Notes: generated from the letters alone by a model not told the origin. Shown: positions 41,001 through 57,018, counted from the first letter of the stretch. The stretch is 64,000 bases of DNA from a virus (IMGVR_UViG_3300045988_182687:71005-135004), one strand, 5' to 3'. Numbers and translations are program-made.

Positions 41001-41420
41001 TTACTTTTTCCGGTTCTTGAAAATTTCAACGGTAAATTCAAGGCAGAAGTCTGCCACCTGCAGGCGGTCGGTGGAATCTCCGGTAAAAATCGGACTGATT
41101 CCGTTTGCTGCCGCCATCCGGTTAATGACATTGCAGCTATTGCAAGCAACGTCATGGTAGCATTTACGGAGCCTGTCGATGGTCTGCAATGCGTCGCGGA
41201 GGTCTTCGCCCTCAAGACGGTTGTGAGCAATGATGATGCGGGTCTCACCCATATCAACTGTGTTCACATAGTCGAGGAAGGCAGAGCATCGCTCTTCAAG
41301 GCTCTCAAGCAGCTTATCTGCATTGGGAATACCCTTCTTGACGCATTCGCCGACCTTGGCGCAGAGCGCGTTGTAATTTTCACGATTGAAAAAGTTGATG
41401 TTGTTATAGTTCTGAGTCAT
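41001..41420 (-). CDS. Hypothetical protein (140 aa)
   Basis: AAAGGAG ribosome-binding site before ATG (MTQNYNN). The upstream part of the listed ORF overlaps the AAA gene in another frame. Confidence 0.5.
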   Translation of the reverse strand: MTQNYNNINFFNRENYNALCAKVGECVKKGIPNADKLLESLEERCSAFLDYVNTVDMGETRIIIAHNRLEGEDLRDALQTIDRLRKCYHDVACNSCNVINRMAAANGISPIFTGDSTDRLQVADFCLEFTVEIFKNRKK

Positions 41421-41496
41421 GGTGTTTTTTTCTCCTTTCTTTCTTATCCGAAAAGAAAGAAAAGAGGCACCATGCCTCTTTTCTCCTTTCGGACCC

Positions 41497-43362: not shown

Positions 43363-43427
43363 GATGTTTTCTCCTTTCTCCCAGCCTGTGATAAGGACTT
43401 TTGGGAAACCAAAATAAAATGTATATA

Positions 43428-43532
43428 TAGAAAAAGACAATCACTGCCCGAAAAGGGAAGTGATTGTCTGAATTTATGATGTGACTTGAAAAACGGAGAT
43501 AAAACTCCTTATAAAAATATCTTCGTAATTAT
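43428..43532 (-). ncRNA. Cassette A leader RNA (about 100 nt): promoter-proximal transcript ending at an intrinsic terminator ahead of the AAA-ATPase operon
   Basis: Minus strand: -35 TTGACA (43561-66), 16-bp spacer, TGgTAGTAT (43539-47). Then a conserved leader containing ggagau-uuau-cucc, then a terminator stem agacaatcact/agtgattgtct plus U-tract (43428-43470), then the gene ribosome-binding site. Confidence 0.5.
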
Positions 43533-43577
43533 ACTATTATACTACCACGTTTCGCTATTTTGTCAACAGCAGCAACG

Positions 43578-43628
43578 TAAAAAAAGAAGCTCCCGAAGGA
43601 GCTTCTTTTGAAATTTAGTTTTTTTTAT
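43578..43628. terminator. Bidirectional intrinsic terminator (gaagctcc/ggagcttc) insulating the upstream operon from cassette A
   Basis: A-run, stem, T-run, plus a second T8 run. Confidence 0.65.
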
Positions 43629-43635
43629 CTTGCTT

Positions 43636-44277
43636 TTAGCATTCCCTTTTAACCATGCGCTCCTGATACTCCTTCAGAACCCTTTGGCCGCACCCATCAG
43701 CGTCGTTGCGATAATCCAAGGAAAACGCTGCGAAGGCGTCTCGCAGTACGGCGGCGCTTCTGGAAATGGTCTGGAGCAGTTCATCTTCCTGATGGCTCAT
43801 TGCGGAGAGCGTGTTGTCGAAATCATCATGGTACTGAGCCGTCCAAGCGGTCGTAAATGTACCATCATCATCCCAAATCCACAAAGGGTCATTATGCTGC
43901 CCTTTTGCCTTGTAGAGTATATCCGTGCAATGTGACACATGGACGATATACTCGCACAGCGCAAAGTACAACTCGTGGTACGCTTTGATGGATTTCTGCT
44001 TACTCTCACAGTCGCTGTGGAACAGAATACCGGAAATCAGGAGATGGGCGTAGTTCTGTTCAACGAAGCCGTATAACTCAGCCAGTTCGCGCTTCCGCAG
44101 AACCAGTTCCGCCGCGTCTTGCGGCAGGTCAGACAGCTTCGGACGAACCTGTAAGGACGCACCCATCCCGACGATTGCGGCAATGGCTTCAGCCGCTTTC
44201 TCATAGCGGTTGATATACAGAATGGTCTCTCTTATCTTCGGTATAACAAAATGGCGAATGTCGGAAGTATCCAGCAT
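43636..44277 (-). CDS. Hypothetical protein (214 aa)
   Basis: GGAGGG ribosome-binding site before ATG (MLDTSDIRHF). Confidence 0.5.
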   Translation of the reverse strand: MLDTSDIRHFVIPKIRETILYINRYEKAAEAIAAIVGMGASLQVRPKLSDLPQDAAELVLRKRELAELYGFVEQNYAHLLISGILFHSDCESKQKSIKAYHELYFALCEYIVHVSHCTDILYKAKGQHNDPLWIWDDDGTFTTAWTAQYHDDFDNTLSAMSHQEDELLQTISRSAAVLRDAFAAFSLDYRNDADGCGQRVLKEYQERMVKREC

Positions 44278-44302
44278 TTTCGTTTGTCCCTCCTTTCGTG
44301 GC

Positions 44303-45349
44303 TTAAATGGCGCAAGTAAATGTGTCATTGCAGCCAGACTTTTCCGTCTCTTTTTCCCATGCCTCAGTAATCTTGTTGCTGGGAGCGCCGGATGCCTTCT
44401 TCCATACAATAGCATCACCGCTGACTTCCAGCGCATCATCGCAAAAGACAAGCGAATTAAAGGTATGCTCGTCTTCATAGAGTGCCAAATGCATCGGGTT
44501 CAGCATGACTGCGCCTTCCGTCAGCAGCATACGGGCCCAGAGCTGGTATTCAAGCGACCAGCGGGACGTTTCTGTCGGCAGGTCGCCATACAGCTCGTCC
44601 AGCTTTCGCAGGATGGAGGCGCAAATCACGCAGCCTGCGGGAGTTCCGTGATGCGTACCGAGATACGGCAGCTTGGCGAAGAATAGGGGACTCTCAGCAT
44701 ACTCGTCTTCCGCATAGGCGTAAAACGTTAGCTCCATGTCCGCTGCTGCGAAGAACCGGTCGGGAAGGATATCCTTCACTTTACAGTTGCTCCAGACAAC
44801 ATCATCCGAAAGGAATCTGAAGCCAAGAGGCTCCGTCCTATCAGGTGTGAGGTACTTCCGTGCCATATGTCGGACGAGGGCAACGAAACCCAGCTCATGC
44901 CGCAGCGTCGGCACATCGTCAAAGATTCTGTGAATGTTTGCCCACAGCTTCTCTTCGCTTCGTTCCACGCACTCGAAAAAGAGTTTGCAGGACGACCCGT
45001 GTGTGAAAGCGACACTCAGGGTCACGAGCCAAGGTGCGAAATCATCAGGCTTCAGAACATACTCTTTCTGCCCAGTACAGGCGACCGGCACAAACCAACC
45101 ACCCGCACGAGCTTCGCTATACGAAGCGTCCTCCGCAGCATAGGCGGTTGTTCTGAAGGCATCGTCGGTGTCCTTATCAGGAATATCAATGGCATCGCCC
45201 TTGCAGATATACTTGAAGGGGACATACATTTCCACCTCTCTAATGCCGTCGCCATCTGCATCATCCGTATCACGGCAGTAACGCACGATATGGACCAATA
45301 CGTTCTCGTCGCAATGCAGCTTTCGCTTGTTCGAAATCAGATTATCCAT
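44303..45349 (-). CDS. Hypothetical protein, paralog 1 of a tandem pair
   Basis: AAAGGAG ribosome-binding site. About 45% identical to the next gene (shared 'ELTF(F/Y)AY...SPLFFAKLP.LG...YGDLP...W.LEYQLWARMLL.EGAVMLNP'). Confidence 0.55.
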   Translation of the reverse strand: MDNLISNKRKLHCDENVLVHIVRYCRDTDDADGDGIREVEMYVPFKYICKGDAIDIPDKDTDDAFRTTAYAAEDASYSEARAGGWFVPVACTGQKEYVLKPDDFAPWLVTLSVAFTHGSSCKLFFECVERSEEKLWANIHRIFDDVPTLRHELGFVALVRHMARKYLTPDRTEPLGFRFLSDDVVWSNCKVKDILPDRFFAAADMELTFYAYAEDEYAESPLFFAKLPYLGTHHGTPAGCVICASILRKLDELYGDLPTETSRWSLEYQLWARMLLTEGAVMLNPMHLALYEDEHTFNSLVFCDDALEVSGDAIVWKKASGAPSNKITEAWEKETEKSGCNDTFTCAI

Positions 45350-45366
45350 GTTTTCTCCTTTCAACG

Positions 45367-46404
45367 TCAGCCAGTTACGATGCAGGTAAAAGCCTCATCG
45401 CCGGACTCACTCATGTCATTCTCCCACGCCTCGGCGATTACGCTGATAGGTGTTTTGACAGCCTTTGCCCACGCAATACCGTCACCGCTGTCTTTCAGCA
45501 TTTTATTACCGAAAGCCAGCGTTTTGAATTCGTAGGCGCAGTCGGGGAGGTCGAGGTGCTTCGGATTCAGCATGACCGCACCTTCTGCCAGCAGCATACG
45601 AGCCCAAAGCTGATACTCCAGAGCCCATTTTGTTGTGTCTTCAGGCAGGTCGCCGTACATCTCATCCAGCTTCTGCAGCAGTTCTGCGATTGCAGCACGT
45701 CCCTCAGGCTTGTTGTACCGTTCGCCCAAATCGGGCAGTTTGGCAAAGAACAGGGGGGACGCTGAATACTCGCCGTCGGAATAGGCGAAGAACGTCAGCT
45801 CCATGGCAGGGGAATTGAAGAACTTCTCAGAGAGAATGTCCTTCACACCGCACTGGGTGAAGTTTACGCTGTCCGAAATGAGGCGGAAGCCGAACTGCTC
45901 CGTCCACTCGCGGGTAAGGTCTCTCTTCGCCATGGCCGCAACCGTGTCAGAATGCCGCCCGCAGGTGTTTTCCGGAGCCACACGCGGCTCGAATCTCGCC
46001 CACATATTGTTGACGATAGCTTCAGTATCGTTGAGGACACTCTCAAAAAGCAGCCGGCAGCCGCGCCAATCTCCTTCGTCGGTGACGGAAAGGCTGATGA
46101 TATAGGGCGCAAAATCTGCAGGATGGAGAATCAATACCGTCTTGCCGGCATCCTCAGTGACCTTAACAGACCAGCCGCACTCATTCCCGTATCGCTCGTC
46201 CTTCTCGAAAGAAGCATTTGTGAGAACGGAAAAGTGCAGTTCGTGACCGTCGCTGAAGACGCTCACAGAATCGCTCTTGCGGATGTCCTTGAAAGGAACG
46301 AATGTGGTCTCGAATCTGTCGTGCTTAGGGTTGTTGCGGGAGACCTTAACCAGCGTGTTCTCGTCGCAGAAAGCTGCGGCGGCTTTGATAGATACATTGT
46401 TCAT
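45367..46404 (-). CDS. Hypothetical protein, paralog 2 of the tandem pair
   Basis: AAAGGAG ribosome-binding site. See 44303-45349. Confidence 0.55.
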   Translation of the reverse strand: MNNVSIKAAAAFCDENTLVKVSRNNPKHDRFETTFVPFKDIRKSDSVSVFSDGHELHFSVLTNASFEKDERYGNECGWSVKVTEDAGKTVLILHPADFAPYIISLSVTDEGDWRGCRLLFESVLNDTEAIVNNMWARFEPRVAPENTCGRHSDTVAAMAKRDLTREWTEQFGFRLISDSVNFTQCGVKDILSEKFFNSPAMELTFFAYSDGEYSASPLFFAKLPDLGERYNKPEGRAAIAELLQKLDEMYGDLPEDTTKWALEYQLWARMLLAEGAVMLNPKHLDLPDCAYEFKTLAFGNKMLKDSGDGIAWAKAVKTPISVIAEAWENDMSESGDEAFTCIVTG

Positions 46405-46470
46405 ATTTTTCTCCTTTCTTTTTTTGGGAAAGCAGGGGAGAGGCAGAGTGCCTCTCCCGCTGGCTTTGAT

Positions 46471-46638
46471 TTAACCGGTTATGACCGCCACAATAACCAA
46501 AACAATGGTGAGCGCAATAGTACCAAAGGCAGCCGGAAGCATTTCTGGCTGGTCTGATTTTTTTGCGGCTATGACTGAGACGACCATTGCGGCGATGATG
46601 AGAACGACATAGGCTATAAACAAGGGGTTCGTCAGCAT
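46471..46638 (-). CDS. Small membrane protein (55 aa)
   Basis: GGAGAAGGA ribosome-binding site. Single/double hydrophobic helix. Confidence 0.35.
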   Translation of the reverse strand: MLTNPLFIAYVVLIIAAMVVSVIAAKKSDQPEMLPAAFGTIALTIVLVIVAVITG

Positions 46639-46658
46639 TTTGAACACGTCCTTCTCCG

Positions 46659-46820
46659 TTAATACCACCGAACAAGTGCGAACAGTTCCACCATAATAAC
46701 GCCCACAGAAACGCTGCAGACGATTGGCGGCAAGAGGTCCTGTGTGTCCAGTCTCCTTATGCCAAGGAATATGCCGCACATCACGAGAATGGTCAGAGCG
46801 AAGTAAAGAATAATCGACAT
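46659..46820 (-). CDS. Small membrane protein (53 aa)
   Basis: GAGGTGGAG ribosome-binding site. Two hydrophobic helices. Confidence 0.35.
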   Translation of the reverse strand: MSIILYFALTILVMCGIFLGIRRLDTQDLLPPIVCSVSVGVIMVELFALVRWY

Positions 46821-46825
46821 TAGAG

Positions 46826-47467
46826 TTACTCCACCTCGCTCTTTTCCAGCTCGGAAAGGTTGTCGCATTCAAATCCGCAGGTCATGCAGTGATATGGACC
46901 GTAGGGGTCAGACGACTCGTAGATGTTAGATTCGATTTCGTCGTTGATATTTCCGAGGAAATCTCCCGTTTCGATGTCAACCAACACATCAATGTGGAGG
47001 ACCTGATGACCAGAGAAAGATACGCCACCACAGTTGGGGCAGCAGCGGGTATACACCTTCTGCTCCCGCTCTGATGCACCAGATTCGATGTCTTCAAACG
47101 CTTCGGCGAGTGTGAGAAGCATCTCATTGATTTCCTTGGCGTCCTCGACAAGCACTGACAGTTTCGGAACGCCTGACGTGCCCTTTACGGAAGCCTCCGC
47201 AAACAGAGCGACGTGCTCGTCAACGTCGAAGTCCTCGTAGACGCGGCGCACAGCAGCGGCTACTCCATCGCCGAAATCATCGTCGGCGTACAGGTCGAAG
47301 GAGTAGTCCTCGCCGGCAGGCGACCCCTGTCTGAACGTGAACACACCACAGACCTTGTCCTCGTCGATGACCCAGCCCAACGCTTCTGCCTTTTCGCGGT
47401 AGTTGGCCGGAAGCAGGTCAGGAACACTGGTCTGGACCTCCGCAGCGTTTTTTTGGTTATTCTCCAT
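46826..47467 (-). CDS. Hypothetical acidic protein with C-terminal zinc ribbon (CCPNCGG...CMTCG)
   Basis: AAAGGAG ribosome-binding site before ATG (MENNQKN). Confidence 0.5.
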   Translation of the reverse strand: MENNQKNAAEVQTSVPDLLPANYREKAEALGWVIDEDKVCGVFTFRQGSPAGEDYSFDLYADDDFGDGVAAAVRRVYEDFDVDEHVALFAEASVKGTSGVPKLSVLVEDAKEINEMLLTLAEAFEDIESGASEREQKVYTRCCPNCGGVSFSGHQVLHIDVLVDIETGDFLGNINDEIESNIYESSDPYGPYHCMTCGFECDNLSELEKSEVE

Positions 47468-47489
47468 GATTTTCTCCTTTCTTTTTTCG

Positions 47490-48269
47490 TTAGGCTTCGG
47501 CGCCGAACACCTTTTTGCAGATAGAGTGAATAGCCACGAACTGTTCCTGAAGCTGTGCCGGCACAAGGGAGATGGAGAGACCGGCATCACGCCATACACT
47601 ATGGCCTGCGAATGCTTTGTCCCACAGTTCTCCACGTTCGTGCTGGGCCTCCAAGAGCCTCTCATAGCGTTCTTCTTCCGTCTTTGCAGCGCCAATGTAC
47701 TGCCGTGTGTACTCGTTGAAGTCTGAAATATTCATCTCCGTCTGGTCGGTGTACTCAAAGCGGGGATATTGGGAGTCGATGAAATGGGCCGCTTCTCTGG
47801 TGAGATTGAACCCTTTCATGTAGGTACTGCCATTATCGCCCCTGAGGAACAGCAGTGACGCCTGCCAATCACGGGAGACGATTTCGTAGATTTCAGTGAT
47901 AACGTCGAGCAGATTTTTCTTCTGCTCTTCTGTCAATGAAATCTTCCGCTTCTGCGCCTCCTTCTGCAGAATCTGTTCCGCAGAGCTTTTGGCGCTATCC
48001 GTCATCGTAAAAGACGGCGTCCAGTCGTACATCAGAACACACTTATGGATGACGTTTGCGGCGATTGAAGCAAAAACAGGTCTGAGCTCCTCAACATCCT
48101 CTACAGACTTCTTGGCGAAGATGATGGCGAGCTGGCAGAAATCGAGCGAGTTGTAGACAGCGTCCACGAAGGACTTCTGCTGCACTTCCCGAATCTCACT
48201 GCCGAGCTTGACCAACTCCCCGATGTCGGTAGAGTTGATGCGCCAAGCGTCAAAGATTTTTGTGCTCAT
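47490..48269 (-). CDS. Hypothetical protein (259 aa)
   Basis: Start ATGA overlaps the upstream stop (coupled). Confidence 0.5.
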   Translation of the reverse strand: MSTKIFDAWRINSTDIGELVKLGSEIREVQQKSFVDAVYNSLDFCQLAIIFAKKSVEDVEELRPVFASIAANVIHKCVLMYDWTPSFTMTDSAKSSAEQILQKEAQKRKISLTEEQKKNLLDVITEIYEIVSRDWQASLLFLRGDNGSTYMKGFNLTREAAHFIDSQYPRFEYTDQTEMNISDFNEYTRQYIGAAKTEEERYERLLEAQHERGELWDKAFAGHSVWRDAGLSISLVPAQLQEQFVAIHSICKKVFGAEA

Positions 48270-48634
48270 TTCAGGCACCCGCCTTCCTTGAGAATGTCCA
48301 TGACCTTCTCCAACACGGTCAACGGGGCGTTGAAGCCGAAGTCGCCAACGGCTCTGCGAAGAGCCATGAGCAATTCCGCCTGATGGCGATAGTCCTTGGC
48401 AGCCTGTTCCGTCTGATACAGCCGGTAATCTGTACTCCAGTACATGGAGTTCTGCTGGAAGTAGGGACTTCTGTTCGCATCTTCGGAAGGAGCCTTGTAG
48501 TATCGACAGCCTCTATCGTCTGTCAGCCACTTGGTTCCAACCTTGACCGTGACCTCATCCACCACTCCCCCGACTTTCCTTTCGGCATTACTACCGATAA
48601 TAGGCACGCGGTAGAGTCTCATCTCAACAGCCAT
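48266..48634 (-). CDS. Hypothetical protein, member of a tandem duplication array
   Basis: N-terminal about 110 aa nearly identical to the 48624-49076 product. Confidence 0.5.
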   Translation of the reverse strand: MAVEMRLYRVPIIGSNAERKVGGVVDEVTVKVGTKWLTDDRGCRYYKAPSEDANRSPYFQQNSMYWSTDYRLYQTEQAAKDYRHQAELLMALRRAVGDFGFNAPLTVLEKVMDILKEGGCLK

Positions 48635-49076
48635 TGTTCTTGCTCCTTTCTTCGTCCGTCAACCCGCCATCCACAGCCATGTCCGTCAGCGTATTGAAGA
48701 CGCTGGTGAGACGCTGTGCGAACGGGGTGTATTTCAGCGTATCCATGACCTTCTCCAGCACAGGCAGGGGAGCGTTGAAGCCGAAATTGCTCACCGCCCT
48801 GCAAAGCGCCACACGCAGTTCCGCTTGCCGAAGGTAATCCTTGGCGGCCTGCTCTGTCTGATACAGCCGGTAGTCCGTGCAGTACATGGTGTTCTGTTGG
48901 AAGTAGGGACTTCTGTTCGCATCTTCGGAAGGCACCTTGTAGTACCGACGACCGTTATCGTCCGTCAGCCACTTGGTTCCGACCTTGACTGTGACCTCAT
49001 CCACCACTTTTCCACGCTGCCTCTCGGCATTGCTGCCGATAACCGTTACGCGGTAAAGTCTCATTTCAGCGGCCAT
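48624..49076 (-). CDS. Hypothetical protein, member of a tandem duplication array
   Basis: C-terminal 35 aa nearly identical to the C-terminus of the 49066-49275 product. Confidence 0.5.
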   Translation of the reverse strand: MAAEMRLYRVTVIGSNAERQRGKVVDEVTVKVGTKWLTDDNGRRYYKVPSEDANRSPYFQQNTMYCTDYRLYQTEQAAKDYLRQAELRVALCRAVSNFGFNAPLPVLEKVMDTLKYTPFAQRLTSVFNTLTDMAVDGGLTDEERSKNNGC

Positions 49077-49275
49077 TGTTCTTACTCCTTTCTTCGTCCG
49101 TCAGCCCGCCATCCACAGCCATGTCCATCAGTGTATTGATGACGCTGGTGAGACGCTGTGCGAACGGGGTGTAGGGGTTCGACAACTCACTGCGGCGCTC
49201 CATCAGAATCGCCATAGCAAACTTAGCGTCATTGACGCTCTTCAGCTCTTCGATTGTCCAGCGATGCTTACTCAT
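49066..49275 (-). CDS. Hypothetical small protein (duplicated C-terminal module)
   Basis: Shares YTPFAQRLTSV.NTL.DMAVDGGLTDEERSKNNG with the neighbouring gene. Confidence 0.4.
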   Translation of the reverse strand: MSKHRWTIEELKSVNDAKFAMAILMERRSELSNPYTPFAQRLTSVINTLMDMAVDGGLTDEERSKNNGR

Positions 49276-49580
49276 GCTCTTGCACCCCCTTCCATAACAG
49301 GCCGGTCGGCATAAGCCGACTGCAACGCGAACTCCATAGCGGAGATGACCTGTGCGATTGAGGGCGTAGGCTTACTCAAATCGCGGGCATATCCGCACCT
49401 GTCGTTCAGGTGGGTAGTCAGGGTGTCCCTGACCTTTCCCTGTACTCCCGTTATTTCCAGCAGTCGCCTCAGAGCATCATTGACGTCTTTTGCGGGCAAC
49501 TTCTTGCGGGGGTGGAACAACAACTCGTTCCGATACTGAGACAATGTGCTGTCAACAAAGTGCAGCGAAGATGTATCCAT
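49272..49580 (-). CDS. Hypothetical protein (102 aa)
   Basis: AAAGGAG ribosome-binding site. Confidence 0.5.
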   Translation of the reverse strand: MDTSSLHFVDSTLSQYRNELLFHPRKKLPAKDVNDALRRLLEITGVQGKVRDTLTTHLNDRCGYARDLSKPTPSIAQVISAMEFALQSAYADRPVMEGGARA

Positions 49581-49594
49581 TTTTTCTCCTTTCC

Positions 49595-49771
49595 CTAATT
49601 CTGCTTGTAAGGCCCAAGTGTGATAGACAGGTTGTAGATATAATTACCACAACGCACACATTCGTCGTTCTTTCCCCACAGGCCGCTTGCTTTCATACCG
49701 CGCACGCTGCCTGTATAATGGATAGACGGGTGTGTATCGCACTCGTGCTGGGTAAGCTCCTTTTGTTTCAT
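49595..49771 (-). CDS. Small zinc-finger-like protein (58 aa, MKQKELTQHECDTH...CVRCG), not in the supplied ORF track
   Basis: AAAGGAG ribosome-binding site 6 nt before the ATG. First gene after cassette B. Below the 60-aa cutoff of the ORF track. Confidence 0.4.
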   Translation of the reverse strand: MKQKELTQHECDTHPSIHYTGSVRGMKASGLWGKNDECVRCGNYIYNLSITLGPYKQN

Positions 49772-49803
49772 GCGTTTACTCCTTTCGTTTTTACTTGTTC
49801 TGA

Positions 49804-49908
49804 ATATATAAAAAGACAGTCGTTCCCAAGTGAGAACAACTGTCTTGAATATGATGATGTGACTGAAAACGGAGATAAATCTCCTTATAAAAATATCTTC
49901 GTAATTAT
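49804..49908 (-). ncRNA. Cassette B leader RNA (about 100 nt) with intrinsic terminator
   Basis: -35 TTGACA (49937-42), 16 bp, TGgTAGTAT (49915-23). Leader hairpin ggagauaaaucucc. Terminator stem agacagtcgttc/gaacaactgtct (one mismatch) plus U-tract at 49804-49846. Confidence 0.5.
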
Positions 49909-49952
49909 ACTACTATACTACCACATTTCTTTATAATGTCAACGGAAACGGT

Positions 49953-49990
49953 ACAAAAAAAGAAGCCCCCGAAAGAGCTTCTTTTTAAGT
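49953..49990. terminator. Bidirectional intrinsic terminator (aagaagc/gcttctt)
   Basis: A7, stem, T5. Confidence 0.65.
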
Positions 49991-49995
49991 TAAGG

Positions 49996-50499
49996 TTATT
50001 TGTTCTTTGCAGTCTTATCGGCGATACCATCGAAGATGTTGCCAACAACACGGATTTCGGTGCCGAGCAGCTTACAAAACGGAACAAAATGTCCGTTGTC
50101 GTAAGCCTCGTCCATCAGCTCTGCTGCCGTTTTTGTTTTCAAAGACTCACTAACCAGCAGTCCAAAGGAACCATTTCGGAACACAACCGTGTTCTCGTTG
50201 AAGAGAGGAGTGGGGCGGAATCCTTCAAAGGTCTCCACGATGTCTCCTTCGAACACCTTTGCGCCGTCCTTGTCGATGATGCCGGTGTACTGCGTTACGG
50301 TATCCGCGTAGACACCGCAAACGTCGCGGCTTTCAGCCGTGTCGGACAAGTACGTGTAGATGATGGCGAAGTCCTTCGGGCTGTTATGGGGACGTGCGGC
50401 GCCCCCGTAGACCCAAATTCCCGGAAGGGGTGCTCCGGTTGCCATGCGAACTTTCTCACCATGCCGCCGAATCTGGCCGCGAAACAGAATTTCTTTCAT
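49996..50499 (-). CDS. YopX-like phage protein
   Basis: AAAGGAG ribosome-binding site. N-terminal 'MKEILFRGQ...GIWVYGG' resembles the YopX family signature (FRxK/Q ... WxYG). Confidence 0.45.
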   Translation of the reverse strand: MKEILFRGQIRRHGEKVRMATGAPLPGIWVYGGAARPHNSPKDFAIIYTYLSDTAESRDVCGVYADTVTQYTGIIDKDGAKVFEGDIVETFEGFRPTPLFNENTVVFRNGSFGLLVSESLKTKTAAELMDEAYDNGHFVPFCKLLGTEIRVVGNIFDGIADKTAKNK

Positions 50500-50520
50500 T
50501 GTTTTTTCTCCTTTCATTTT

Positions 50521-50820
50521 TCAATGCATCCCATGGAGCTTTTTCCACTGGGCTTTATCCATCCAAGGACCGTCGAAGCTGTCGTCCACACACTCTGTTC
50601 TGAGACAGTTAGGACAGACGAGACAGTCCACAGCCCGCCGAATACGACCGGTCTTGAAACGCACCCCATGCTGGATGATTTCTTCCTCATCCACGAAGTA
50701 GCTCGGTTCAAGCTCGCAACCACAAGTGCCGCAGATGCCAAACGGGTTTGCATTGGACTCGTAGGTGCCGTTCTGCTTTTGGATATTCTCCTGAATCACT
50801 GCATGGTAATCCGTCGCCAT
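50521..50820 (-). CDS. Small zinc-finger protein (CGTCGC...CLVCPNC)
   Basis: GAGGAGGTG ribosome-binding site. Confidence 0.5.
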   Translation of the reverse strand: MATDYHAVIQENIQKQNGTYESNANPFGICGTCGCELEPSYFVDEEEIIQHGVRFKTGRIRRAVDCLVCPNCLRTECVDDSFDGPWMDKAQWKKLHGMH

Positions 50821-51557
50821 CAGAACTGCACCTCCTCGAACTCAATGACCCATACCCACGGGTTTCCTGCCCACTTCGAGAGAGCCTTATGCTTCGGAAT
50901 AGTGCCGTCCCACAGCTTAATGAACTTATCCTGAAGGGACATGATGTTCTTGGAGGAATCTTCATCGCGAGTGACACCCTCCTTTATGAAGTCCTCTTCG
51001 CTCATGTCATTAAGCCGGTCCAACCGAACATCCGTCACACGCAGAAAAATGCGTGCAGCCTCCTTGGGCATATGGATAGATGGTGTCCAGTGAATGAGAG
51101 AGTTTACCTCAGGAGAGTTTTTCAGGTCCTCGTCAGTGTAGTCGGCCTTATAGAGCCAGCGGTTCTCGGCGCAGGCACAGGTCGTTTCGCGAACATACAG
51201 GATGTCCCCCTTGTCAAACGGAGCACGGAAGCTACGAATGACGGTATTCTCATCAGCGAAAGCGGCCACGAGCCGTCCGTCTCCATCGCGATACAGTCCA
51301 TCCGCTCTCTTTCCCGCAAAGTGGAATGCACCACGGCGAGTCACTGCCTTGCGACCCTCCCGGATGGCTCGAACCATCTCTCCGTTGAAGATAATGGGCT
51401 TGGGATTTTTGTCCTTAAAAGCATCGGGGTCAAAGTGGACACCGGCTTTCTCGCGCAGTTCCTTGCAACGAGAGCCGCGATAGATGTCTGTGTCGCACTC
51501 TTTGACAGGACAATGTGAGAGGCAGATTCGCCGCTCATAAGGTTCCTTTCTGAGCAT
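50820..51557 (-). CDS. Hypothetical protein (245 aa)
   Basis: AAAGGAG ribosome-binding site. Confidence 0.5.
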   Translation of the reverse strand: MLRKEPYERRICLSHCPVKECDTDIYRGSRCKELREKAGVHFDPDAFKDKNPKPIIFNGEMVRAIREGRKAVTRRGAFHFAGKRADGLYRDGDGRLVAAFADENTVIRSFRAPFDKGDILYVRETTCACAENRWLYKADYTDEDLKNSPEVNSLIHWTPSIHMPKEAARIFLRVTDVRLDRLNDMSEEDFIKEGVTRDEDSSKNIMSLQDKFIKLWDGTIPKHKALSKWAGNPWVWVIEFEEVQF

Positions 51558-51587
51558 ATATTTTTCTCCTTTCTTTTCCTCGCGGGG

Positions 51588-52040
51588 TCACTCATATTCC
51601 TGACAACAAAGGTCGTAGACCTTATGCAGCGCAGCCAACGCCGTCTCAGGAATATCCTGAGTGTCCATGTCAAACCATTCGCCGAGCAATCCGGTAACAT
51701 CTCCAAGAAACAGGAACTCGTCGAACACTTCCGACGGCGTACCGGAACCTTTTTTGCTTACCTTGCGCCGCTTATGTGGTGCAGTTCCGCGACAGGCATC
51801 CAGTGCGTCCTGCAGGAGCGATATCGCACCCTTGGGAATTTCGCTGGTATCCATTTTCAACCAATTCGCCAGAGTCTCGATGACATCATCGAGGAACACA
51901 TAATTGCACTCGCAGATAATTCTTGCCATCTGCAAATGTCGAATTGCGTCCGTTGGGATGTCGTCAATGTCGTACTCGGTGAGCTGCCTCTTCAGGCTCT
52001 TTACGACCTCATCGCGGGACAAAACCTTGTTTCTTCCCAT
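51588..52040 (-). CDS. Hypothetical protein with an internal duplication
   Basis: AAAGGAG ribosome-binding site before ATG (MGRNKVL). Two repeats of '...DIP..A...L..A.D.C...'. Confidence 0.5.
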   Translation of the reverse strand: MGRNKVLSRDEVVKSLKRQLTEYDIDDIPTDAIRHLQMARIICECNYVFLDDVIETLANWLKMDTSEIPKGAISLLQDALDACRGTAPHKRRKVSKKGSGTPSEVFDEFLFLGDVTGLLGEWFDMDTQDIPETALAALHKVYDLCCQEYE

Positions 52041-52069
52041 GTTGTTCTCCTTTCTTTTTTTTGCGGATT

Positions 52070-52621
52070 TCAACTGCTCTGCCTCAGTGTATCAGGCACG
52101 GCACCGTAGCTCTGCGCGGCTGGGTAGGCGGGAGGGAAGGGGATAGCCCCTCCTCTCGCTACCTGAGCCACCACGAGGGTGCTAATGCCGCCAGAGGGCG
52201 TTCTGTATTGCTGAACGCTTGGCGTGTAGAGAAACCCATCCACCGCTTGTCTCACGGTCATTGTGGGGTATTTTGGCGCCCGCCAACGATGCTCCTTAGA
52301 ATAGTAGATTTCCCTGACCCGACACGTTGCAACTGTGACGGGAATGAGGGGATTGTCTACCGTATGTTCACACACGATGGCGATAGATGTCTTTCCAATT
52401 CTGGAAGCATCCTCCACCATGCGCTGCAGCGCGAGTCTCTGACCATAAGGCATTGCGGCATTACGATGCTTCACCTCAAAGAAAACATACCCCTTGTCGT
52501 GATACTCAATGAGTCCGTCGATGTCGGTAGGATAACAGTTACCCTTGTTTTCAATAGTCATGCCCGTGAAGCTGACGAGCTGTTTCATCCTTGCGGGAAA
52601 TCTAATGTAGTCCTTCCTCAC
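52070..52621 (-). CDS. Hypothetical protein (183 aa)
   Basis: AAAGGAG then 6 nt then GTG. Start uncertain (alternative ATG at about 52588). Confidence 0.4.
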   Translation of the reverse strand: MRKDYIRFPARMKQLVSFTGMTIENKGNCYPTDIDGLIEYHDKGYVFFEVKHRNAAMPYGQRLALQRMVEDASRIGKTSIAIVCEHTVDNPLIPVTVATCRVREIYYSKEHRWRAPKYPTMTVRQAVDGFLYTPSVQQYRTPSGGISTLVVAQVARGGAIPFPPAYPAAQSYGAVPDTLRQSS

Positions 52622-52649
52622 GGGAGTCTCCTTTCTGCAGGCATCCCCC

Positions 52650-52982
52650 TCAGCGGGGGATGCCTTTGCCGTTTTTGAGCATGGAAATGACTTTTGCGGC
52701 CAAGAAATCGTCGGCCACAAACTGGTTATAGCCGTTTTTCAGACCGTTGCTGGAGAAATCTTCTGTGTCCTTGGCATAGCGGCACATGGATTTGTCGGAA
52801 ATAGGTCCATAGCAAGAGTGCTCGGTGGTTACATAGACGCAACTCTCTCCGCAAGTCACGAAGCCAGAGCAGCCGCGCTTCTGTCCGTTGACTGTGATGT
52901 TCTTCAGGTGCGTGGTAATGTCCATGCCCATCTGTTCTGCCAAAGAGGTAAGTCCGTTTTTCAGCTTTACAGAAAGCAACAT
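52650..52982 (-). CDS. Small Cys-rich protein (110 aa)
   Basis: GAAAGG ribosome-binding site before ATG (MLLSVKL). Confidence 0.4.
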   Translation of the reverse strand: MLLSVKLKNGLTSLAEQMGMDITTHLKNITVNGQKRGCSGFVTCGESCVYVTTEHSCYGPISDKSMCRYAKDTEDFSSNGLKNGYNQFVADDFLAAKVISMLKNGKGIPR

Positions 52983-52984
52983 TC

Positions 52985-53737
52985 TTACACCGCCTTTCTT
53001 TCTACCCAGACATCGCCCAACTTGGCGCACTCGCCGTGGTAAGGGCAGTCGTGATAGGTTTCGCAACCCTCATCAACGAAGGTCTGGCAGGTGCCACAGT
53101 CCAAATTGTGATGCAGAAGACGCTGGATAACATCCCGCGCATTTTCGGTCTCTACCGCGAGGTAGGAAAAAGCTCTCGCCTTGACGCTTGCATCGTACTC
53201 ATCCGTGTAGTAGAGGGAAGACGCACAGAGAACCTTTGCGCCGAACACACGGCGGCACTCCTCATCGGAGAGCATTTCACCGGCAAACGGGAAAAGACCG
53301 CGTCTGCCTCTGAGCTGGTTGCTGACGTGTGTGTGCGCGTTCTTTGCCAACTTAACGCCCTCACGAGCCTCATCCAGTGTGTCGAAGGACAACGCACACA
53401 CATCCACAAGAGAACCTTCGCCGATAGGGGAGTGGTTCACAAAAAGCATCGCGTATCTTCTGCTGGGAAGGGTTGCAGTTCTCGCTGCATCCTCGCCTTC
53501 GAGACACACGTAACGCGCCACTTTGTCGTCCCACACATACTTCTCACAGGAGGTGCAGGTGTTCTCTGCTTTATCACATCCGGATTTCGACGCAACGACC
53601 TTCAGCTCGGCTGCTTTTTTTTCTGCCTCGCACTTATCCACAGCGGCAAAGCACACTTTTCGTCCCTTTTCCTCATCGAAACGATAGTGCTCACATAACG
53701 CACAGGAACCAGCAGGCTTTTCACAGATATATGCCAT
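52985..53737 (-). CDS. Cys-rich hypothetical protein (250 aa)
   Basis: AAAGGAG ribosome-binding site before ATG (MAYICEKPAG). Multiple CxxC pairs. Confidence 0.5.
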   Translation of the reverse strand: MAYICEKPAGSCALCEHYRFDEEKGRKVCFAAVDKCEAEKKAAELKVVASKSGCDKAENTCTSCEKYVWDDKVARYVCLEGEDAARTATLPSRRYAMLFVNHSPIGEGSLVDVCALSFDTLDEAREGVKLAKNAHTHVSNQLRGRRGLFPFAGEMLSDEECRRVFGAKVLCASSLYYTDEYDASVKARAFSYLAVETENARDVIQRLLHHNLDCGTCQTFVDEGCETYHDCPYHGECAKLGDVWVERKAV

Positions 53738-53796
53738 ATTTTTCTCCTTTCTCCCAGCCTGTGTTAAGGTCTTATGGGAACAAAAATGTAGTGAAT

Positions 53797-53899
53797 ATAT
53801 AAAAAGACAGTCGTTCTCAAAAGAGAACAACTGTCTTGAATGTGATGATGTGACTGAAAACGGAGACAAAGCTCCTTATAAAAATATCTTCGTAATTAT
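53797..53899 (-). ncRNA. Cassette C leader RNA (about 100 nt) with intrinsic terminator
   Basis: -35 TTGACA (53928-33), 16 bp, TGgTAGTAT (53906-14). Terminator stem agacagtcgttctc/gagaacaactgtct plus U-tract at 53797-53837. Confidence 0.5.
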
Positions 53900-53944
53900 A
53901 CTACTATACTACCACATTTCCTTATAATGTCAACGGTTTCGACG

Positions 53945-53983
53945 CAAAAGAAAAGAGCCGCACAGCGGCTCTTTTCTTTAGGC
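53945..53983. terminator. Bidirectional intrinsic terminator (agagccgc/gcggctct)
   Basis: A-rich, stem, T-rich. Confidence 0.65.
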
Positions 53984-53990
53984 TTGTTGT

Positions 53991-54950
53991 TCACGCTTCT
54001 ACGTAAACTGGTTTAAGATACTGTGCGCTGAGAAATTTGCCTCGCAAGGAAGAAATCTTTGCCTCAGCGTCTTTCTCACTGATAAACCTCTGAGCATCAT
54101 CCACGGAGGACGTGTACTGGAGGTTGTTCTTCACGGATTTCTTCACATACTTCCCTGCGTATGCCTTTTCCGTACACATAACGACATAGGGCCGAGGCGC
54201 CGTCATCTTGCGCGTTACGGTCTTGAACTCAAGTCCCATTACGCTGATAACCTCTCCCATTGCTGCCGTAGCTGCTTCCGCAGACGGGTAGTGAATGGCA
54301 TCTCTGACATCCTTTGTGAAATGCACAGTTATTCTTCCAATCACATTATCAAATGCACGCACATAGCCCGCGTTGCGCTTTTGAACTACAAGCGGACCCT
54401 TTACATCCCGCGCTCTGGCAGGTCGCAGGCGCTCGCCGCGCTGTGTTCCGCTGAACGACATGAAGATGTAGTGGTCCTTGTGTTCTTTTACCAGTTCCCG
54501 TGCCTCATCCAGCCAGACTTCCAGCTCATCCGTTGTTCTGACATACCTCCACAGCAGATGGTCGCCGGACGTATAGGGCATCAGCCCTACATTCAGGTCG
54601 TTGACGCCGGGATTGGCGGCGAGGATGTCCTCCAGCGTGGCGGCATCCTTTGCGGCGCGAGCAAACCATTTCCGTGCCTGAGAGCAAGTGACCCACTTGC
54701 TGTTCATCTTCCAGCACTCATCATCGGTGTCGGGGAAGGTGGTATTCACCTTCGCCACAAATTCGTCCTCAGGAAGTTCCAGAAGATTGATTCCTCCCAG
54801 CAAGAACCAGTGGCGCTCGCGAACCTCTCGCGGCTTGAAATTCCTGTCGTAGATGAACTCGGAGCAGTTGTTGCTGCCACCCAAGGCAAGGGGAATGATA
54901 CCACGAGTTGTCTTGATGAAAGAGCGGGCATCAATGATAGTGTATCCCAT
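53991..54950 (-). CDS. Hypothetical protein (319 aa)
   Basis: AAAGGAG ribosome-binding site before ATG (MGYTIIDARSF). Confidence 0.55.
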   Translation of the reverse strand: MGYTIIDARSFIKTTRGIIPLALGGSNNCSEFIYDRNFKPREVRERHWFLLGGINLLELPEDEFVAKVNTTFPDTDDECWKMNSKWVTCSQARKWFARAAKDAATLEDILAANPGVNDLNVGLMPYTSGDHLLWRYVRTTDELEVWLDEARELVKEHKDHYIFMSFSGTQRGERLRPARARDVKGPLVVQKRNAGYVRAFDNVIGRITVHFTKDVRDAIHYPSAEAATAAMGEVISVMGLEFKTVTRKMTAPRPYVVMCTEKAYAGKYVKKSVKNNLQYTSSVDDAQRFISEKDAEAKISSLRGKFLSAQYLKPVYVEA

Positions 54951-54966
54951 TTTTACATCTCCTTTC

Positions 54967-55236
54967 TTACATCTCGCCATCCTCGGCAGCGGTTATAATA
55001 CCGAATCTGAGGTTGTTGTTGATGTCGTAGATACTTAATCCGCTATCAAAGTCCTTGCGGAGCTGCGTCGCAGCGGCCTCTACGGAGTCTTCGCCGTACT
55101 CAAACGTCTCGGACTCGACGCAGGTTGCCACAAGCTCCTTCAGCTTTGCGCGGGAAGTCGTCGCAGAAACCAGACGCATAGAGTCTGTTGCTTTCCAAGC
55201 GTCACAGGCAAACACGATGAAGATAGGATTACTCAT
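54967..55236 (-). CDS. Hypothetical small protein (89 aa)
   Basis: AAAGGAG ribosome-binding site before ATG (MSNPIFIVF). Overlaps the upstream gene stop by 8 nt. Confidence 0.4.
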   Translation of the reverse strand: MSNPIFIVFACDAWKATDSMRLVSATTSRAKLKELVATCVESETFEYGEDSVEAAATQLRKDFDSGLSIYDINNNLRFGIITAAEDGEM

Positions 55237-55807
55237 TTTCGGCTTGCTCCTTTCTTCTTCCAACGGTGGCTGCGGGGTACGGTGTGGCCCGCTTGTTGTT
55301 GCTGTCCATGATTCGCATAACATGGACAAGCATCTCGGAATATGCCCTGTGCATGGTTTCATACCGCGCACGCCATGTATTATCATCATTGTCGTTCACG
55401 CGAGCACTCAGCCCCATGCTGTAGTACAGCGCGGCGTCGATGTCTACCAGCTCCGCTTCAGTCAGGTGGCAGATATAGGCTCCCAGCTCATTGACAGAAA
55501 CTGCCATCGGCTGCTCGCACAGTGCTGTGCTGGGGCGGCTCGTGCTCGTGATGAGTACATGGGAGGGCTGCTGCATCTTTGGAGATGATGTCGTAAATAC
55601 GACCTCCACTACACTGCTGTAGCGGTTCAGGTCATCCGAAGATACAACGATTGCGGGACGATGCCCTCTGATAACAGAGCTATTGGAAGGATGTCCGTCT
55701 TTATCGCGGAACTGGCTTCCTTCCGGGGCCCAAGGGGAAAAGATTTCGATTTCTTTCGCATTGACCCAAAAAACATCGCCCCTGCGGATGTTTCCATTTC
55801 TACCCAT
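55229..55807 (-). CDS. MazF/PemK-family toxin-like protein with C-terminal extension
   Basis: AAAGGAG ribosome-binding site. 'RRGDVFWV...RPAIVVSSD...VVEVVFTTS' matches the PemK/MazF core (GDIv.v.f....RPalVvS). About 80 aa longer than typical family members. Confidence 0.5.
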   Translation of the reverse strand: MGRNGNIRRGDVFWVNAKEIEIFSPWAPEGSQFRDKDGHPSNSSVIRGHRPAIVVSSDDLNRYSSVVEVVFTTSSPKMQQPSHVLITSTSRPSTALCEQPMAVSVNELGAYICHLTEAELVDIDAALYYSMGLSARVNDNDDNTWRARYETMHRAYSEMLVHVMRIMDSNNKRATPYPAATVGRRKEQAENE

Positions 55808-56015
55808 AGATTCTTGTCTCCTTTCCTTCAGAATTGGTTACACACGACGGAATGCCGAAAAAAGACAGAACCGCTTTAAGCGGCTCTGTCTCCATGCAGT
55901 CGATATGACACTGTTTGTTTTCGTAGGGTGCCTCGACAAATTTTTCGCCAACCTCAATGGGTTCGTGGCAAATGCAGCATTCGCCGGCGTAACGAATTTT
56001 CTTTTTTGCTTTCAC
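55800..56015 (-). CDS. Small zinc-finger protein (CCICH...C), candidate cognate antitoxin/partner of the MazF-like gene
   Basis: GTG start after AAAGGAG. 8-nt overlap with the MazF-like start. Confidence 0.35.
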   Translation of the reverse strand: MKAKKKIRYAGECCICHEPIEVGEKFVEAPYENKQCHIDCMETEPLKAVLSFFGIPSCVTNSEGKETRIYG

Positions 56016-56036
56016 AATGAATTTACTCCTTTCTTT

Positions 56037-56240
56037 TCAAAGTTGCCGAGACAGTGTTACGGCTGCCTGCTGGCGTCGTCTTTCGCAGTTTCTTCGCTGC
56101 ACTTCGATAGCTTCGCGAGCCTCCGCAATACACTGCTTCGCACGCCTATCCTGTTCAGAAGAGAAAGATGCGTAGCGCTCAGAGTAGACGGAATCCATAC
56201 GCTCGGCTCTCTCAATTAACTCATACAGCGGTGTAGACAT
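56037..56240 (-). CDS. Hypothetical small protein (67 aa)
   Basis: GAGGAGGAG ribosome-binding site. Confidence 0.4.
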   Translation of the reverse strand: MSTPLYELIERAERMDSVYSERYASFSSEQDRRAKQCIAEAREAIEVQRRNCERRRQQAAVTLSRQL

Positions 56241-56256
56241 AGCTTCTCCTCCTCGT

Positions 56257-56529
56257 TTATTGAATGTTCATGCCTACGGCGCGAGGACCTTCTTTGGACC
56301 AAGTTTCCTTGAGCCAGTGATAGGTGATTGTGCTATCTTCGGGACTCTTGTCTGGGTAGCAGGGAAGGTATGCTGCGGAGTACAAGTCTCTGCACTGACT
56401 GAAGTACACATGATTCCAGTCAGCCCACACATCACCAAGAGAACGGATAGCTCGCTTGAACGACCGAAAGCTCTGTGGCGTGTGAACTACGATGGCATTT
56501 GCTCCGTTCCACTTTCCATTCCACATCAT
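56257..56529 (-). CDS. Hypothetical small protein (90 aa)
   Basis: GGGAGGTG ribosome-binding site. Confidence 0.4.
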   Translation of the reverse strand: MMWNGKWNGANAIVVHTPQSFRSFKRAIRSLGDVWADWNHVYFSQCRDLYSAAYLPCYPDKSPEDSTITYHWLKETWSKEGPRAVGMNIQ

Positions 56530-56795
56530 TGCACTTCACCTCCCTGATACGTCGGGCGGCTGCGTCTGTTACGGAACGGAGGCATCACCGGTGCGGTGTA
56601 GCTGGTCAGCTCACCCGTCATTTTGACAGGCACACACTGGAGCAATCCGCGCTGTTTTCGATACTGGTGAGCCAAGTTGTTGCGAGCCTGTTTCTCAGAA
56701 ACCGCCATAGTCGTCCCGCCCCACTTATTTGTGGTAATGTCGTCATAGACACGAACGGGTCCGAGATAGCTGAAAACCATTTTTGCCTGTGCCAT
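56526..56795 (-). CDS. Hypothetical small protein (89 aa)
   Basis: AAAGGAG ribosome-binding site. First gene after cassette D. Confidence 0.45.
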   Translation of the reverse strand: MAQAKMVFSYLGPVRVYDDITTNKWGGTTMAVSEKQARNNLAHQYRKQRGLLQCVPVKMTGELTSYTAPVMPPFRNRRSRPTYQGGEVQ

Positions 56796-56837
56796 TATGT
56801 TTTCTCCTTTCTTATTGTGTTGTAATGTAAAAAAATA

Positions 56838-56938
56838 TATAAAAAGACAGCTATCCCTGTCTTGGGATAACTGTCTTGAATACTTGGTGTGACTGGAAGC
56901 GGAGATAAGTCTCCTTATAAAAATATCTTCGTAATTAT
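56838..56938 (-). ncRNA. Cassette D leader RNA (about 100 nt) with intrinsic terminator
   Basis: -35 TTGACA (56967-72), 16 bp, TGgTAGTAT (56945-53). Terminator stem gacagctatccc/gggataactgtc plus U-tract at 56838-56878. Stem sequence differs from cassettes A-C but pairing is kept. Confidence 0.5.
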
Positions 56939-56982
56939 ACTATTATACTACCACAATTATTTATAATGTCAACAATGGCAGA

Positions 56983-57018
56983 GAAAAAAGAGGCGGCTTT
57001 CGCCTGCCTCTTTTTTTA
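56983..57018. terminator. Intrinsic terminator downstream of the 57016-58188 gene (gaggcggc/gcctgcctc)
   Basis: A-run, stem, T7. Confidence 0.6.

Follow-up and report, generated by a model that had tools for sequence, protein, structure and literature searches.

A promoter, short leader and terminator cassette repeated ahead of the operons of a plasmid-like element: a predicted attenuator regulon

The DNA analysed here (the window) is a 64,000-nt stretch of a contig filed as viral, IMGVR_UViG_3300045988_182687 (71005-135004). It carries four near-identical cassettes, read on the minus strand at all four sites, where chance would be expected to produce none. Each cassette joins a consensus promoter to a short leader and a strong intrinsic terminator, and each stands in front of an operon. 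The cassettes appear to form an undescribed attenuator regulon with a predicted mechanism. The reading we prefer, with a probability of about one half, is that read-through of the leader terminators is regulated by a trans-acting factor at the promoter-proximal block or leader. The cassette would thus be a portable control unit that puts many operons of a conjugative-plasmid-like element under common attenuation, and the sequences suggest that it also serves homologous recombination, through which operons are deleted, inserted, and reshuffled.

Cassette anatomy and the leader RNA

The four cassettes share a 41-mer core (GTAGTATARTAGTATAATTACGAAGATATTTTTATAAGGAG) that is identical in every copy (43505-43545, 49881-49921, 53872-53912, and 56911-56951); matches with three or fewer mismatches averaged 0.00 in 100 dinucleotide-preserving shuffles. 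A preliminary description of this DNA had reported a unit of about 200 bp recurring at four minus-strand sites with a nearly invariant leader, and all four units were recovered as described. The 5' end of each cassette is a bidirectional hairpin (A-run, GC-stem, T-run) that constitutes the terminator of the upstream operon and stands 20-25 nt before the -35 element. The promoter follows, as had been reported, in 4/4 units: TTGACA, a 16-nt spacer, and a TG-extended -10 element (TGGTAGTAT, TGgTAGTAT). A second -10-like hexamer, TATAAT, sits 5 nt past the extended -10. The leader continues as UUACGAAGAUAUUUUUAUAAGGAG-N-CUCC, then about 25 C- and A-rich nt, and ends in a long hairpin followed by UUUUUAUAUAU, with AGGAG and an ATG downstream. 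The proposed anatomy of promoter, terminated RNA of about 100 nt, and operon is therefore borne out by the sequence. The ribosome-binding region, described earlier as conserved, is common to two of the four copies, both of which have an extra conserved hairpin module; AGGAG and the ATG are present in all four.

The elements of the cassettes, all on the minus strand, can be placed as follows. Cassette 1 (43360-43609) has its upstream terminator at 43582-43609, its -35 element at 43561-43566, the extended -10 at 43539-43547, the second TATAAT at 43528-43533, a mini-hairpin in the leader at 43495-43508, and a nested-loop leader terminator at 43431-43469. The same elements lie at 49955-49986, 49937-49942, 49915-49923, 49904-49909, 49871-49884, and 49810-49846 in cassette 2 (49769-49986), and at 53947-53979, 53928-53933, 53906-53914, 53895-53900, 53862-53875, and 53801-53837 in cassette 3 (53735-53979). 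Cassette 4 (56793-57017) has its upstream terminator at 56983-57017 and its promoter at 56945-56972 (TTGACA at 56967-56972, the 16-nt spacer, and TGGTAGTAT at 56945-56953). Its second TATAAT (56934-56939), at about -1 to +5 of the predicted start, is a candidate sigma-dependent pause element. The mini-hairpin predicted by folding (GGAGACUUAUCUCC) is at 56901-56914, and the leader terminator at 56841-56877 has a 14-bp stem, a 6-nt loop, and a U-tract followed by AUAUAU. The first genes behind cassettes 1-4 begin with ATGs at 43362, 49771, 53737, and 56795, each with an AGGAG; the one behind cassette 4 spans 56526-56795.

A consensus scan of 41-60.9 kb ranked the same elements highly. The cassette promoters are four of the six best promoter-like sites (10/12 matches) and the only ones of the six with an upstream TG. 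The top three terminator-like sites are leader hairpins of three cassettes; that of cassette 1 contains a nested loop, which the scan is unable to score, and folds at -26.6 kcal/mol.

Minimum-energy folds of five leader variants agree on a mini-hairpin, an unpaired stretch, and the terminator hairpin, with total energies of -27 to -34 kcal/mol and z-scores near -5.5. The mini-hairpin has 4-5 bp (GGAGA-UUUA-UCUCC), and about 25 unpaired nt separate it from the terminator. Calling the leader "structured", as the preliminary description did, overstates what precedes the terminator. In the most diverged copy, the fifth pair of the mini-hairpin has changed from A-U to C-G (GGAGA/UCUCC to GGAGC/GCUCC). 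The mini-hairpin gives no covariation signal because its GGAG/CUCC core never varies, and it appears to be maintained by structure.

Selection on the terminator hairpin had been suggested from compensatory change among the four copies, and the larger set of family copies confirms it. The stem is paired in 98.0% of cells across 61 distinct copies, and 10/14 stem pairs have both-side changes (85 cells). None of 500 column shuffles reached any of five covariation measures, and sliding the 3' partner by 1-3 columns lowered pairing to 39-66% of cells. The stem base (AAGACAG/CUGUCUU) is conserved while the upper half varies. Hairpin energies range from -16.4 to -25.1 kcal/mol (mean -21.2), with 5-8 U residues.

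No competing antiterminator fold was found in the leader. When the 3' arm of the terminator was forbidden, the best remaining folds reached -6 to -15 kcal/mol in all 61 variants, a cost of 17-20 kcal/mol that argues against a riboswitch-like or zipper-like alternative structure. A leader peptide was also considered and rejected: there is no start codon at a workable distance from the AAGGAG of the leader, and indels between copies break the frame.

A second conserved RNA module separates the leader terminator from the Shine-Dalgarno sequence in cassettes 3 and 1 (53753-53778 and 43380-43405) and in about 55 of 85 distinct cassette units of relatives. It consists of a stem P1, an unpaired RUAAG, a stem-loop P2, and P1', directly 5' of GAGAAAGGAG. 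Judged by eye, P1 changes from CCC/GGG to GAGC/GCUC to GUGC/GCAC between cassette types, and P2 from CCU/AGG to CCG/CGG; RNAalifold on a MAFFT alignment of the module returned no consensus structure, and the module has no Rfam match. At least ten unrelated first genes stand behind it. The module may be a site of translational control or RNA processing.

The cassette family and its recombination

Copies of the leader beyond the window were collected from relatives. A 25-nt piece of the leader matched 66 stretches of IMG/VR contigs, and a promoter-only pattern added more diverged copies. A profile search of the fetched sequence gave 149 hits, all of full length and full architecture, and 138 of them are in 25 IMG/VR contigs of 9-192 kb. 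A contig holds up to 12 cassettes, and cassettes never occur on opposite strands within one contig. Their spacing is 1.4-8 kb within runs and up to about 21 kb between runs, and they span at least 65 kb. Over the first 150 nt, 66 distinct variants were found.

Cassette DNA had no similarity to INPHARED phages or PLSDB plasmids by megablast or blastn, and two scans of GTDB representatives (one genome per species) found no cassette copy. A full-text literature search for the cassette sequence found no paper. In Rfam, only tRNAs reached the gathering score in the window, and a permissive search with two cassettes gave sub-threshold matches driven by the terminator.

Conservation is uneven along the cassette. 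The second TATAAT is nearly invariant across the 66 variants, and +1 to +12 (AUAAUUACGAAG) is invariant in 61 distinct copies except for one base in one copy. Variation is also almost absent from the TG, both -10-type hexamers, and GGAG...CUCC, whereas the -35/-10 spacer, the CA-rich stretch, and the top and loop of the terminator vary; transcribed positions +1 to +40 are better conserved than the -35/-10 spacer. The Shine-Dalgarno-like AAGGAG is kept in two lineages, A and B, and is ACGGAG in the diverged copy, where the mini-hairpin is retained. Lineage A, which includes the window, has GAAGAUAUUUUUAUAAGGAGAUUUAUCUCC, and all fetched copies of lineage B carry GAAGCUAUUUUUAUAAAGGAGAUUAUCUCC, on contigs of 46-192 kb that mostly exceed 100 kb. 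At the position of cassette 4, the two lineages differ at just 3-4 sites from the -10 element to about +40, compared with 54% protein and 63% DNA identity for the gene upstream and 56% identity for intergenic DNA. Purifying selection, homogenisation among copies, or both would account for this pattern. Shared changes that are specific to a lineage would be expected from gene conversion or from co-evolution with one trans-acting partner. The most diverged copy retains the whole architecture, ahead of a primase-like/pilin operon beside RepL-like genes.

Assemblies break at the cassettes because the cassette is repeated. Short-read assemblies (the Logan contigs L087-L092 and L094, and the end of L093) stop inside the invariant part of a cassette, at window 53889-53891 or in the promoter or early leader of the lineage B copy. 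Sequencing runs in which the element occurs include ERR13963057, ERR13899384, SRR35963586, ERR11564530, SRR27029830, ERR11564112, and SRR9292719. Public-assembly contigs with one window protein are 1.2-1.4 kb long and are broken inside the repeat.

Repetition of the unit in direct orientation makes it a site for homologous recombination. One relative (L043) is collinear with the window except that operon 3 (about 3.9 kb, behind cassette 3) is missing, and the junction is a single hybrid cassette with its 5' part from cassette 3 and its 3' part from cassette 2. The upstream terminator, spacer, mini-hairpin variant, and CAUCAC of the hybrid derive from cassette 3, and its terminator loop, 5' untranslated region, and first gene from cassette 2, which places the crossover within about 20 shared bases. 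Mosaic junctions were also found in which one upstream module is joined to differing downstream modules across contigs, and vice versa; there are 19 types of downstream module. In another relative (L024, IMGVR_UViG_3300029737_000022), window position 46303 is joined directly to 15861 with both breakpoints within genes; the junction reflects a 30-kb deletion or a chimeric assembly.

Predicted control by terminator read-through

In the preferred model, host sigma-A RNA polymerase would initiate at the near-consensus, TG-extended -10 promoter and make a leader of about 95-100 nt. The default outcome would be a stop at the strong intrinsic terminator with release of a short RNA, and the downstream operon would be transcribed only upon terminator read-through. 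A trans-acting factor would set the level of read-through by way of the invariant block from about -16 to +40. The second TATAAT, AUAAUUACGAAG at the beginning of the transcript, and the GGAG/CUCC mini-hairpin all lie within this block. The factor is proposed to act in trans because no antiterminator fold of the leader competes with the terminator. It might load onto polymerase that has undergone sigma-dependent pausing at the second TATAAT, in the manner of Q; it might bind the mini-hairpin and the 5' single strand and pass to polymerase, as N or LoaP; or it might bind the conserved single strand entering the stem base, in which case the terminator could not close. Because every operon has an end terminator and a fresh promoter, local control is favoured over a fully processive mode.

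Read-through is central to this model. Neither the consensus scan nor the sequence itself revealed a credible promoter in the 40-90 nt that separate the leader terminator from the ATG. With no downstream promoter and no alternative antiterminator fold seen, operon expression needs read-through of the leader terminator, and the operons would be transcribed only by polymerase that passes it. Obligatory read-through is why attenuation is preferred over a stand-alone small RNA. Coordinated read-through, which had been proposed earlier, is still the best reading given the lack of another promoter and the cost of at least 17 kcal/mol for loss of the 3' arm. The sequences show the anatomy, the covariation of the terminator stem, the lack of an alternative fold and of another recognisable promoter, the number, shared orientation, and conservation of the copies, and the recombinant cassette. 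From them we infer where transcription starts, how efficiently the terminator works, that a factor exists and of what kind it is, and the plasmid biology.

Several considerations weigh against regulated read-through. Scans of Pfam, PHROGs, and PDB sequences over the window and the cassette-adjacent genes gave nothing suggestive of an antiterminator or leader-binding protein, and the regulator scans covered part of each element of about 180-190 kb. Start site, termination, and read-through are predictions. Identity among copies could stem from gene conversion rather than from selection on a factor-binding site, and a strong promoter with a leaky terminator could fix low expression without a regulator. 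Operon-end terminators with a new promoter for each operon argue against a strictly processive form like that of lambda Q. The preliminary description had stated that no antiterminator gene was identifiable, and proteins of the Q, N, NusG-like, and ConAn1 types were indeed not seen in the scans. The first genes behind the cassettes and the upstream operon that lacks a cassette gave nothing significant in the same Pfam, PHROGs, and PDB-sequence scans.

Antitermination and attenuation by leader elements are described in Gram-positive conjugative elements, including conAn of pLS20 (PMC8191782), canT of Tn916 (PMC11658703), and the zipper attenuator cATT (PMC13401043). As predicted for the cassettes, terminators silence the genes and a leader element admits polymerase, and one cassette copy precedes a pilin/primase-like operon beside replication genes. 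conAn2 RNA is 260-600 nt long and acts with ConAn1 (PF17362) at the start of the conjugation operon (PMC8191782). The leader here is about 60 nt, and PF17362 was not seen in any of the scans, which were non-exhaustive; the first genes behind the most diverged cassette have no Pfam match. In cATT, complementary segments flank a long stem and the upstream segment pairs with the terminator (PMC13401043). No such fold occurs in the cassettes, whose terminator arms vary beside a constant leader. Each of the three systems is described from one site per element, which precedes the conjugation genes, in contrast to a dozen sites here.

Repeated promoters in a co-oriented block of establishment and anti-defence type (toxin-antitoxin pairs, an orphan methylase) also recall the Frpo/ssi promoters of plasmid leading regions. 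In Frpo, single-stranded DNA folds into a duplex that mimics -35 and -10 elements (PMC11541004). A single-strand promoter of this kind was rejected for the cassettes, whose promoter is unpaired in single-strand DNA folds of both strands. The centroids of these folds pair the two terminator hairpins, and the minus strand adds a 4-bp mini-hairpin and a short 5' flanking hairpin.

The cassette is best viewed as a form of promoter-proximal attenuation or antitermination, and it is assigned as a variant because the defining features of each tested family fail. What sets it apart would be the number of copies, the very short leader, and the second function as a recombination site. A bolder version of the preferred model can be offered tentatively. 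In it, -16 to +40 (tandem -10 elements, AUAAUUACGAAG, and the mini-hairpin) would be a new, very short antitermination signal that switches a dozen or more operons. The block would be a loading site for a plasmid protein or a cis-acting RNA, the operons would include establishment, anti-defence, and transfer genes of a conjugative plasmid of about 190 kb, and module swaps would keep the control intact.

The most serious competitor is a fixed attenuator or expression module, which we consider possible but unlikely. A consensus promoter and a partly leaky terminator would give constant modest output and insulate the operons with no dedicated regulator. Regulation would occur at initiation only, by a repressor on the tandem GTAGTATA repeats over the -10, and the leader would be conserved mainly through spread and homogenisation by recombination, as in the PeSL cassettes of T4. 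An operator is plausible in that the 8-nt tandem repeat GTAGTATA overlaps the -10 element. Global plasmid repressors with such operators include omega of pSM19035 and KorA/KorB of RK2. One relative encodes a LexA-type winged-helix protein upstream of its array, a weak, non-significant helix-turn-helix-like hint occurs in the 322-aa protein that immediately precedes cassette 4, and the failure to find an antiterminator gene is also in keeping with a fixed module. However, the long perfect hairpins (-16 to -25 kcal/mol, 5-8 U), maintained by compensatory change in every copy, seem to exceed what a mild leak would call for, and transfer-type genes (pilins, primase-like) also stand behind such a terminator. 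Conservation of +1 to +40 above that of the -35/-10 spacer is something that a pure operator does not need.

Recombination is the other support for a fixed module, for the cassettes are recombination junctions and are homogenised within lineages. PeSLs (promoter-early stem-loops) of T4-type phages are described as small composite repeats of a terminator stem-loop and an early promoter between variable genes, where homologous exchange leads to insertions, deletions, and replacements (PMC2839356, PMC4122927). The cassettes resemble them as terminator-plus-promoter repeats at the edges of variable modules with crossovers inside the motif (the L043 and mosaic junctions). PeSLs are not known to have a conserved leader or a second terminator past their promoter. 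By comparison, the cassettes add a conserved leader of about 60 nt and a second strong terminator, and they occur in a plasmid-like replicon of a Firmicutes-type host. Their context of RepL-like, pilin, and adhesin genes, with no DNA similarity in INPHARED, also differs from the hyperplastic regions of T4-type myovirus genomes, where PeSLs lie with T4 early-promoter sequence.

Regulation strictly of the lambda Q type is improbable. A plasmid protein would bind promoter DNA and join polymerase at the TATAAT pause, and the leader terminator as well as all later ones would be resisted. The preliminary description had likened the cassettes to lambdoid late architecture (PR', 6S RNA, tR', and Q), and the likeness stands for the strong constitutive promoter, the short terminated RNA, and genes behind it that would need antitermination. 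It may extend to the -10-like hexamer at the predicted start of the transcribed region, which by sequence alone resembles a sigma-dependent pause element. The TG-extended -10 with a near-invariant TATAAT 5 nt on (about -1 to +5), the invariant initial transcribed region, and a terminator at about +100 all agree with Q, and modification of cassette-initiated polymerase only would explain why promoter and leader travel together. The comparison breaks down elsewhere. Lambda has one PR', compared with up to 12 cassettes per contig in a plasmid setting; each cassette operon is closed by a terminator of its own; and lambda Q binds in the -35/-10 spacer, which in the cassettes is conserved less than any other part of the promoter. 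A processive antiterminator would leave no need for 12 or more copies with new promoters and operon-end terminators, and the position of the pause element rests on a predicted start. No Q-family protein was detected in the Pfam and PHROGs scans: none is among the matches listed (best 25 families per batch scan) for the window and 137 families of cassette-neighbouring proteins, from partial elements. At least 12 cassettes and separate operon terminators fit a locally acting attenuator regulon better than one processive late transcript.

A multi-copy small-RNA family, suggested earlier as an alternative, is weaker still and has only a slim chance of being correct. The RNA of about 100 nt would itself be the product, acting as a base-pairing regulator or as a decoy or sponge (for a host RNA-binding protein, or for 30S subunits via AAGGAG), and read-through into the operon would be secondary. 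The cassette has the classic outline of a small-RNA gene, in which a consensus promoter and a short RNA are followed by a strong terminator and a U tail; high copy number would mean high dosage; and the AAGGAG is conserved in lineages A and B. Nevertheless, the absence of any other visible operon promoter means that read-through is not incidental, and every copy has a downstream operon, with none standing alone. No complementary target or antisense copy was found in the window, where the leader search matched cassettes only, in one orientation. The potential single-stranded seed varies more than the rest of the leader, AAGGAG became ACGGAG in the diverged copy while the hairpin was kept, and there is no Rfam match.

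That the cassettes are merely the ends of tandem mobile-element copies, or a repeat like a miniature inverted-repeat transposable element, with no regulatory role is hardly credible: the unit is highly repeated and marks the edges of variable DNA, but the modules between cassettes are unrelated (19 downstream clusters), neither a transposase nor an integrase appeared in the window operons or among the best-represented neighbouring families, all copies are direct with promoter and terminator correctly ahead of a ribosome-binding site and ATG, terminal inverted repeats are absent, and the L043 junction is a simple homologous crossover within the unit.

The element, its operons, and their significance

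The gene content of the element points to a conjugative plasmid of a Firmicutes/Clostridia-type host, and the viral label of the contigs is doubtful. The window encodes two giant thioester/TQ/SpaA adhesins on the plus strand (8-10927 and 12651-18317). The first runs off the window edge and exceeds 3639 aa, and the second has 1888 aa; they carry 18 and 5 TQ-ester domains and end in SPKTGD and VQTGD sorting signals, respectively, each followed by a hydrophobic anchor and a basic tail. These termini identify both as sortase-anchored adhesins of Clostridia type carried on a mobile element. The window topoisomerase III has 87% of its plasmid matches on conjugative plasmids. A RecG-like helicase, an SPFH/flotillin protein, a secreted-type nuclease, a PemK toxin, and a YopX protein are also encoded.

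Few of the 137 cassette-neighbouring protein families in relatives have any family match. Those matched include toxin-antitoxin pairs, HNH/RRXRR nucleases, RecD2-like and YqaJ/RecE-like recombination proteins, DUF3846, DUF4314, and XRE-type regulators. The most diverged cassette adjoins two divergently transcribed RepL-like genes, and its operon encodes two TrbC/VirB2 pilins together with a primase-like protein that has a CHC2 zinc finger. One contig encodes, upstream of its array, DUF3846, a PBECR4 nuclease, an orphan N6/N4 DNA methylase, and the LexA-type winged-helix protein. Capsid, portal, terminase, and tail families are not among the Pfam and PHROGs matches listed for the window and the 137 neighbouring families, and no oriT or relaxase was found in the partial element sequence examined. 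The phage-like gene blocks of the preliminary description are thus not supported; the scans list RepL-like proteins, TrbC/VirB2, topoisomerase III, and adhesins and no structural phage genes. The IMG/VR contigs filed as viral (L001-L086) carry RepL-like, type IV secretion system pilin, primase-like, and toxin-antitoxin genes, with no virion genes in the parts read, and they are probably plasmids, or at most phage-plasmids.

All four cassette operons are on the minus strand. The operon behind cassette 1 (36821-43362) ends at a terminator near 36800 and includes a weak, sub-threshold AAA_5 (AAA ATPase-like) match, DUF3232, a VWA/CobT-like protein, small open reading frames (ORFs), and an HD-domain protein. 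The operon behind cassette 2 (43636-49771) has about 11 genes, nearly all without a family match. It contains a tandem duplication at 48288-49173 (minus strand; about 442 bp, 77-88% identity) that gives the paralogous genes 48266-48634 and 48624-49076, and several close relatives apparently have a single copy. Both genes have weak, sub-threshold matches to a "Phage ProQ C-terminal-like" domain.

A YopX-domain protein is encoded at 49996-50517 in the operon behind cassette 3 (49996-53737). The operon behind cassette 4 (53991-56795) has, besides small ORFs, genes for a PemK/MazF-like toxin (55229-55807) and for a 329-aa protein. The toxin, on the minus strand, has its domain at residues 9-128 and a C-terminal extension of about 60 residues, and no recognisable antitoxin family adjoins it.

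In the middle of the array, 57016-59153 on the minus strand encodes conserved 390-aa and 322-aa proteins behind the RecG-like helicase. Their operon has an ordinary promoter without a leader near 61350-61380. The two proteins have 3-6 homologues among 5.8 billion proteins, and residues 247-274 of the 322-aa protein give the faint, non-significant helix-turn-helix-like hint. AlphaFold models of the 322-aa and 390-aa proteins had a mean predicted local distance difference test score of 56 and 34, respectively, too poor to use. The apparent plasmid also carries five tRNA genes (Glu-CTC, Thr-CGT, Thr-TGT, Gly-TCC, and Ser-TGA; window 61879-62419 and 33210-33297, plus strand), four of which lie between the cassette array and an insertion sequence-type transposase (62680-63864).

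The timing of plasmid gene expression after transfer is mostly known from a few model plasmids. In this uncultured plasmid family, at least 65 kb of genes stand behind the same promoter-proximal terminator, including toxin-antitoxin pairs, nucleases, helicases, many unknown small proteins, and pilin and primase-like genes. Even without a regulator, the cassette explains why assemblies break at these positions, is a specific marker of the plasmid family, and supplies natural terminator variants in a common context. If read-through is regulated, the cassettes would be a compact and transferable "one signal, many operons" switch and a natural regulatory part that doubles as a recombination site for module shuffling, and they would offer a way to track down a new antitermination factor.

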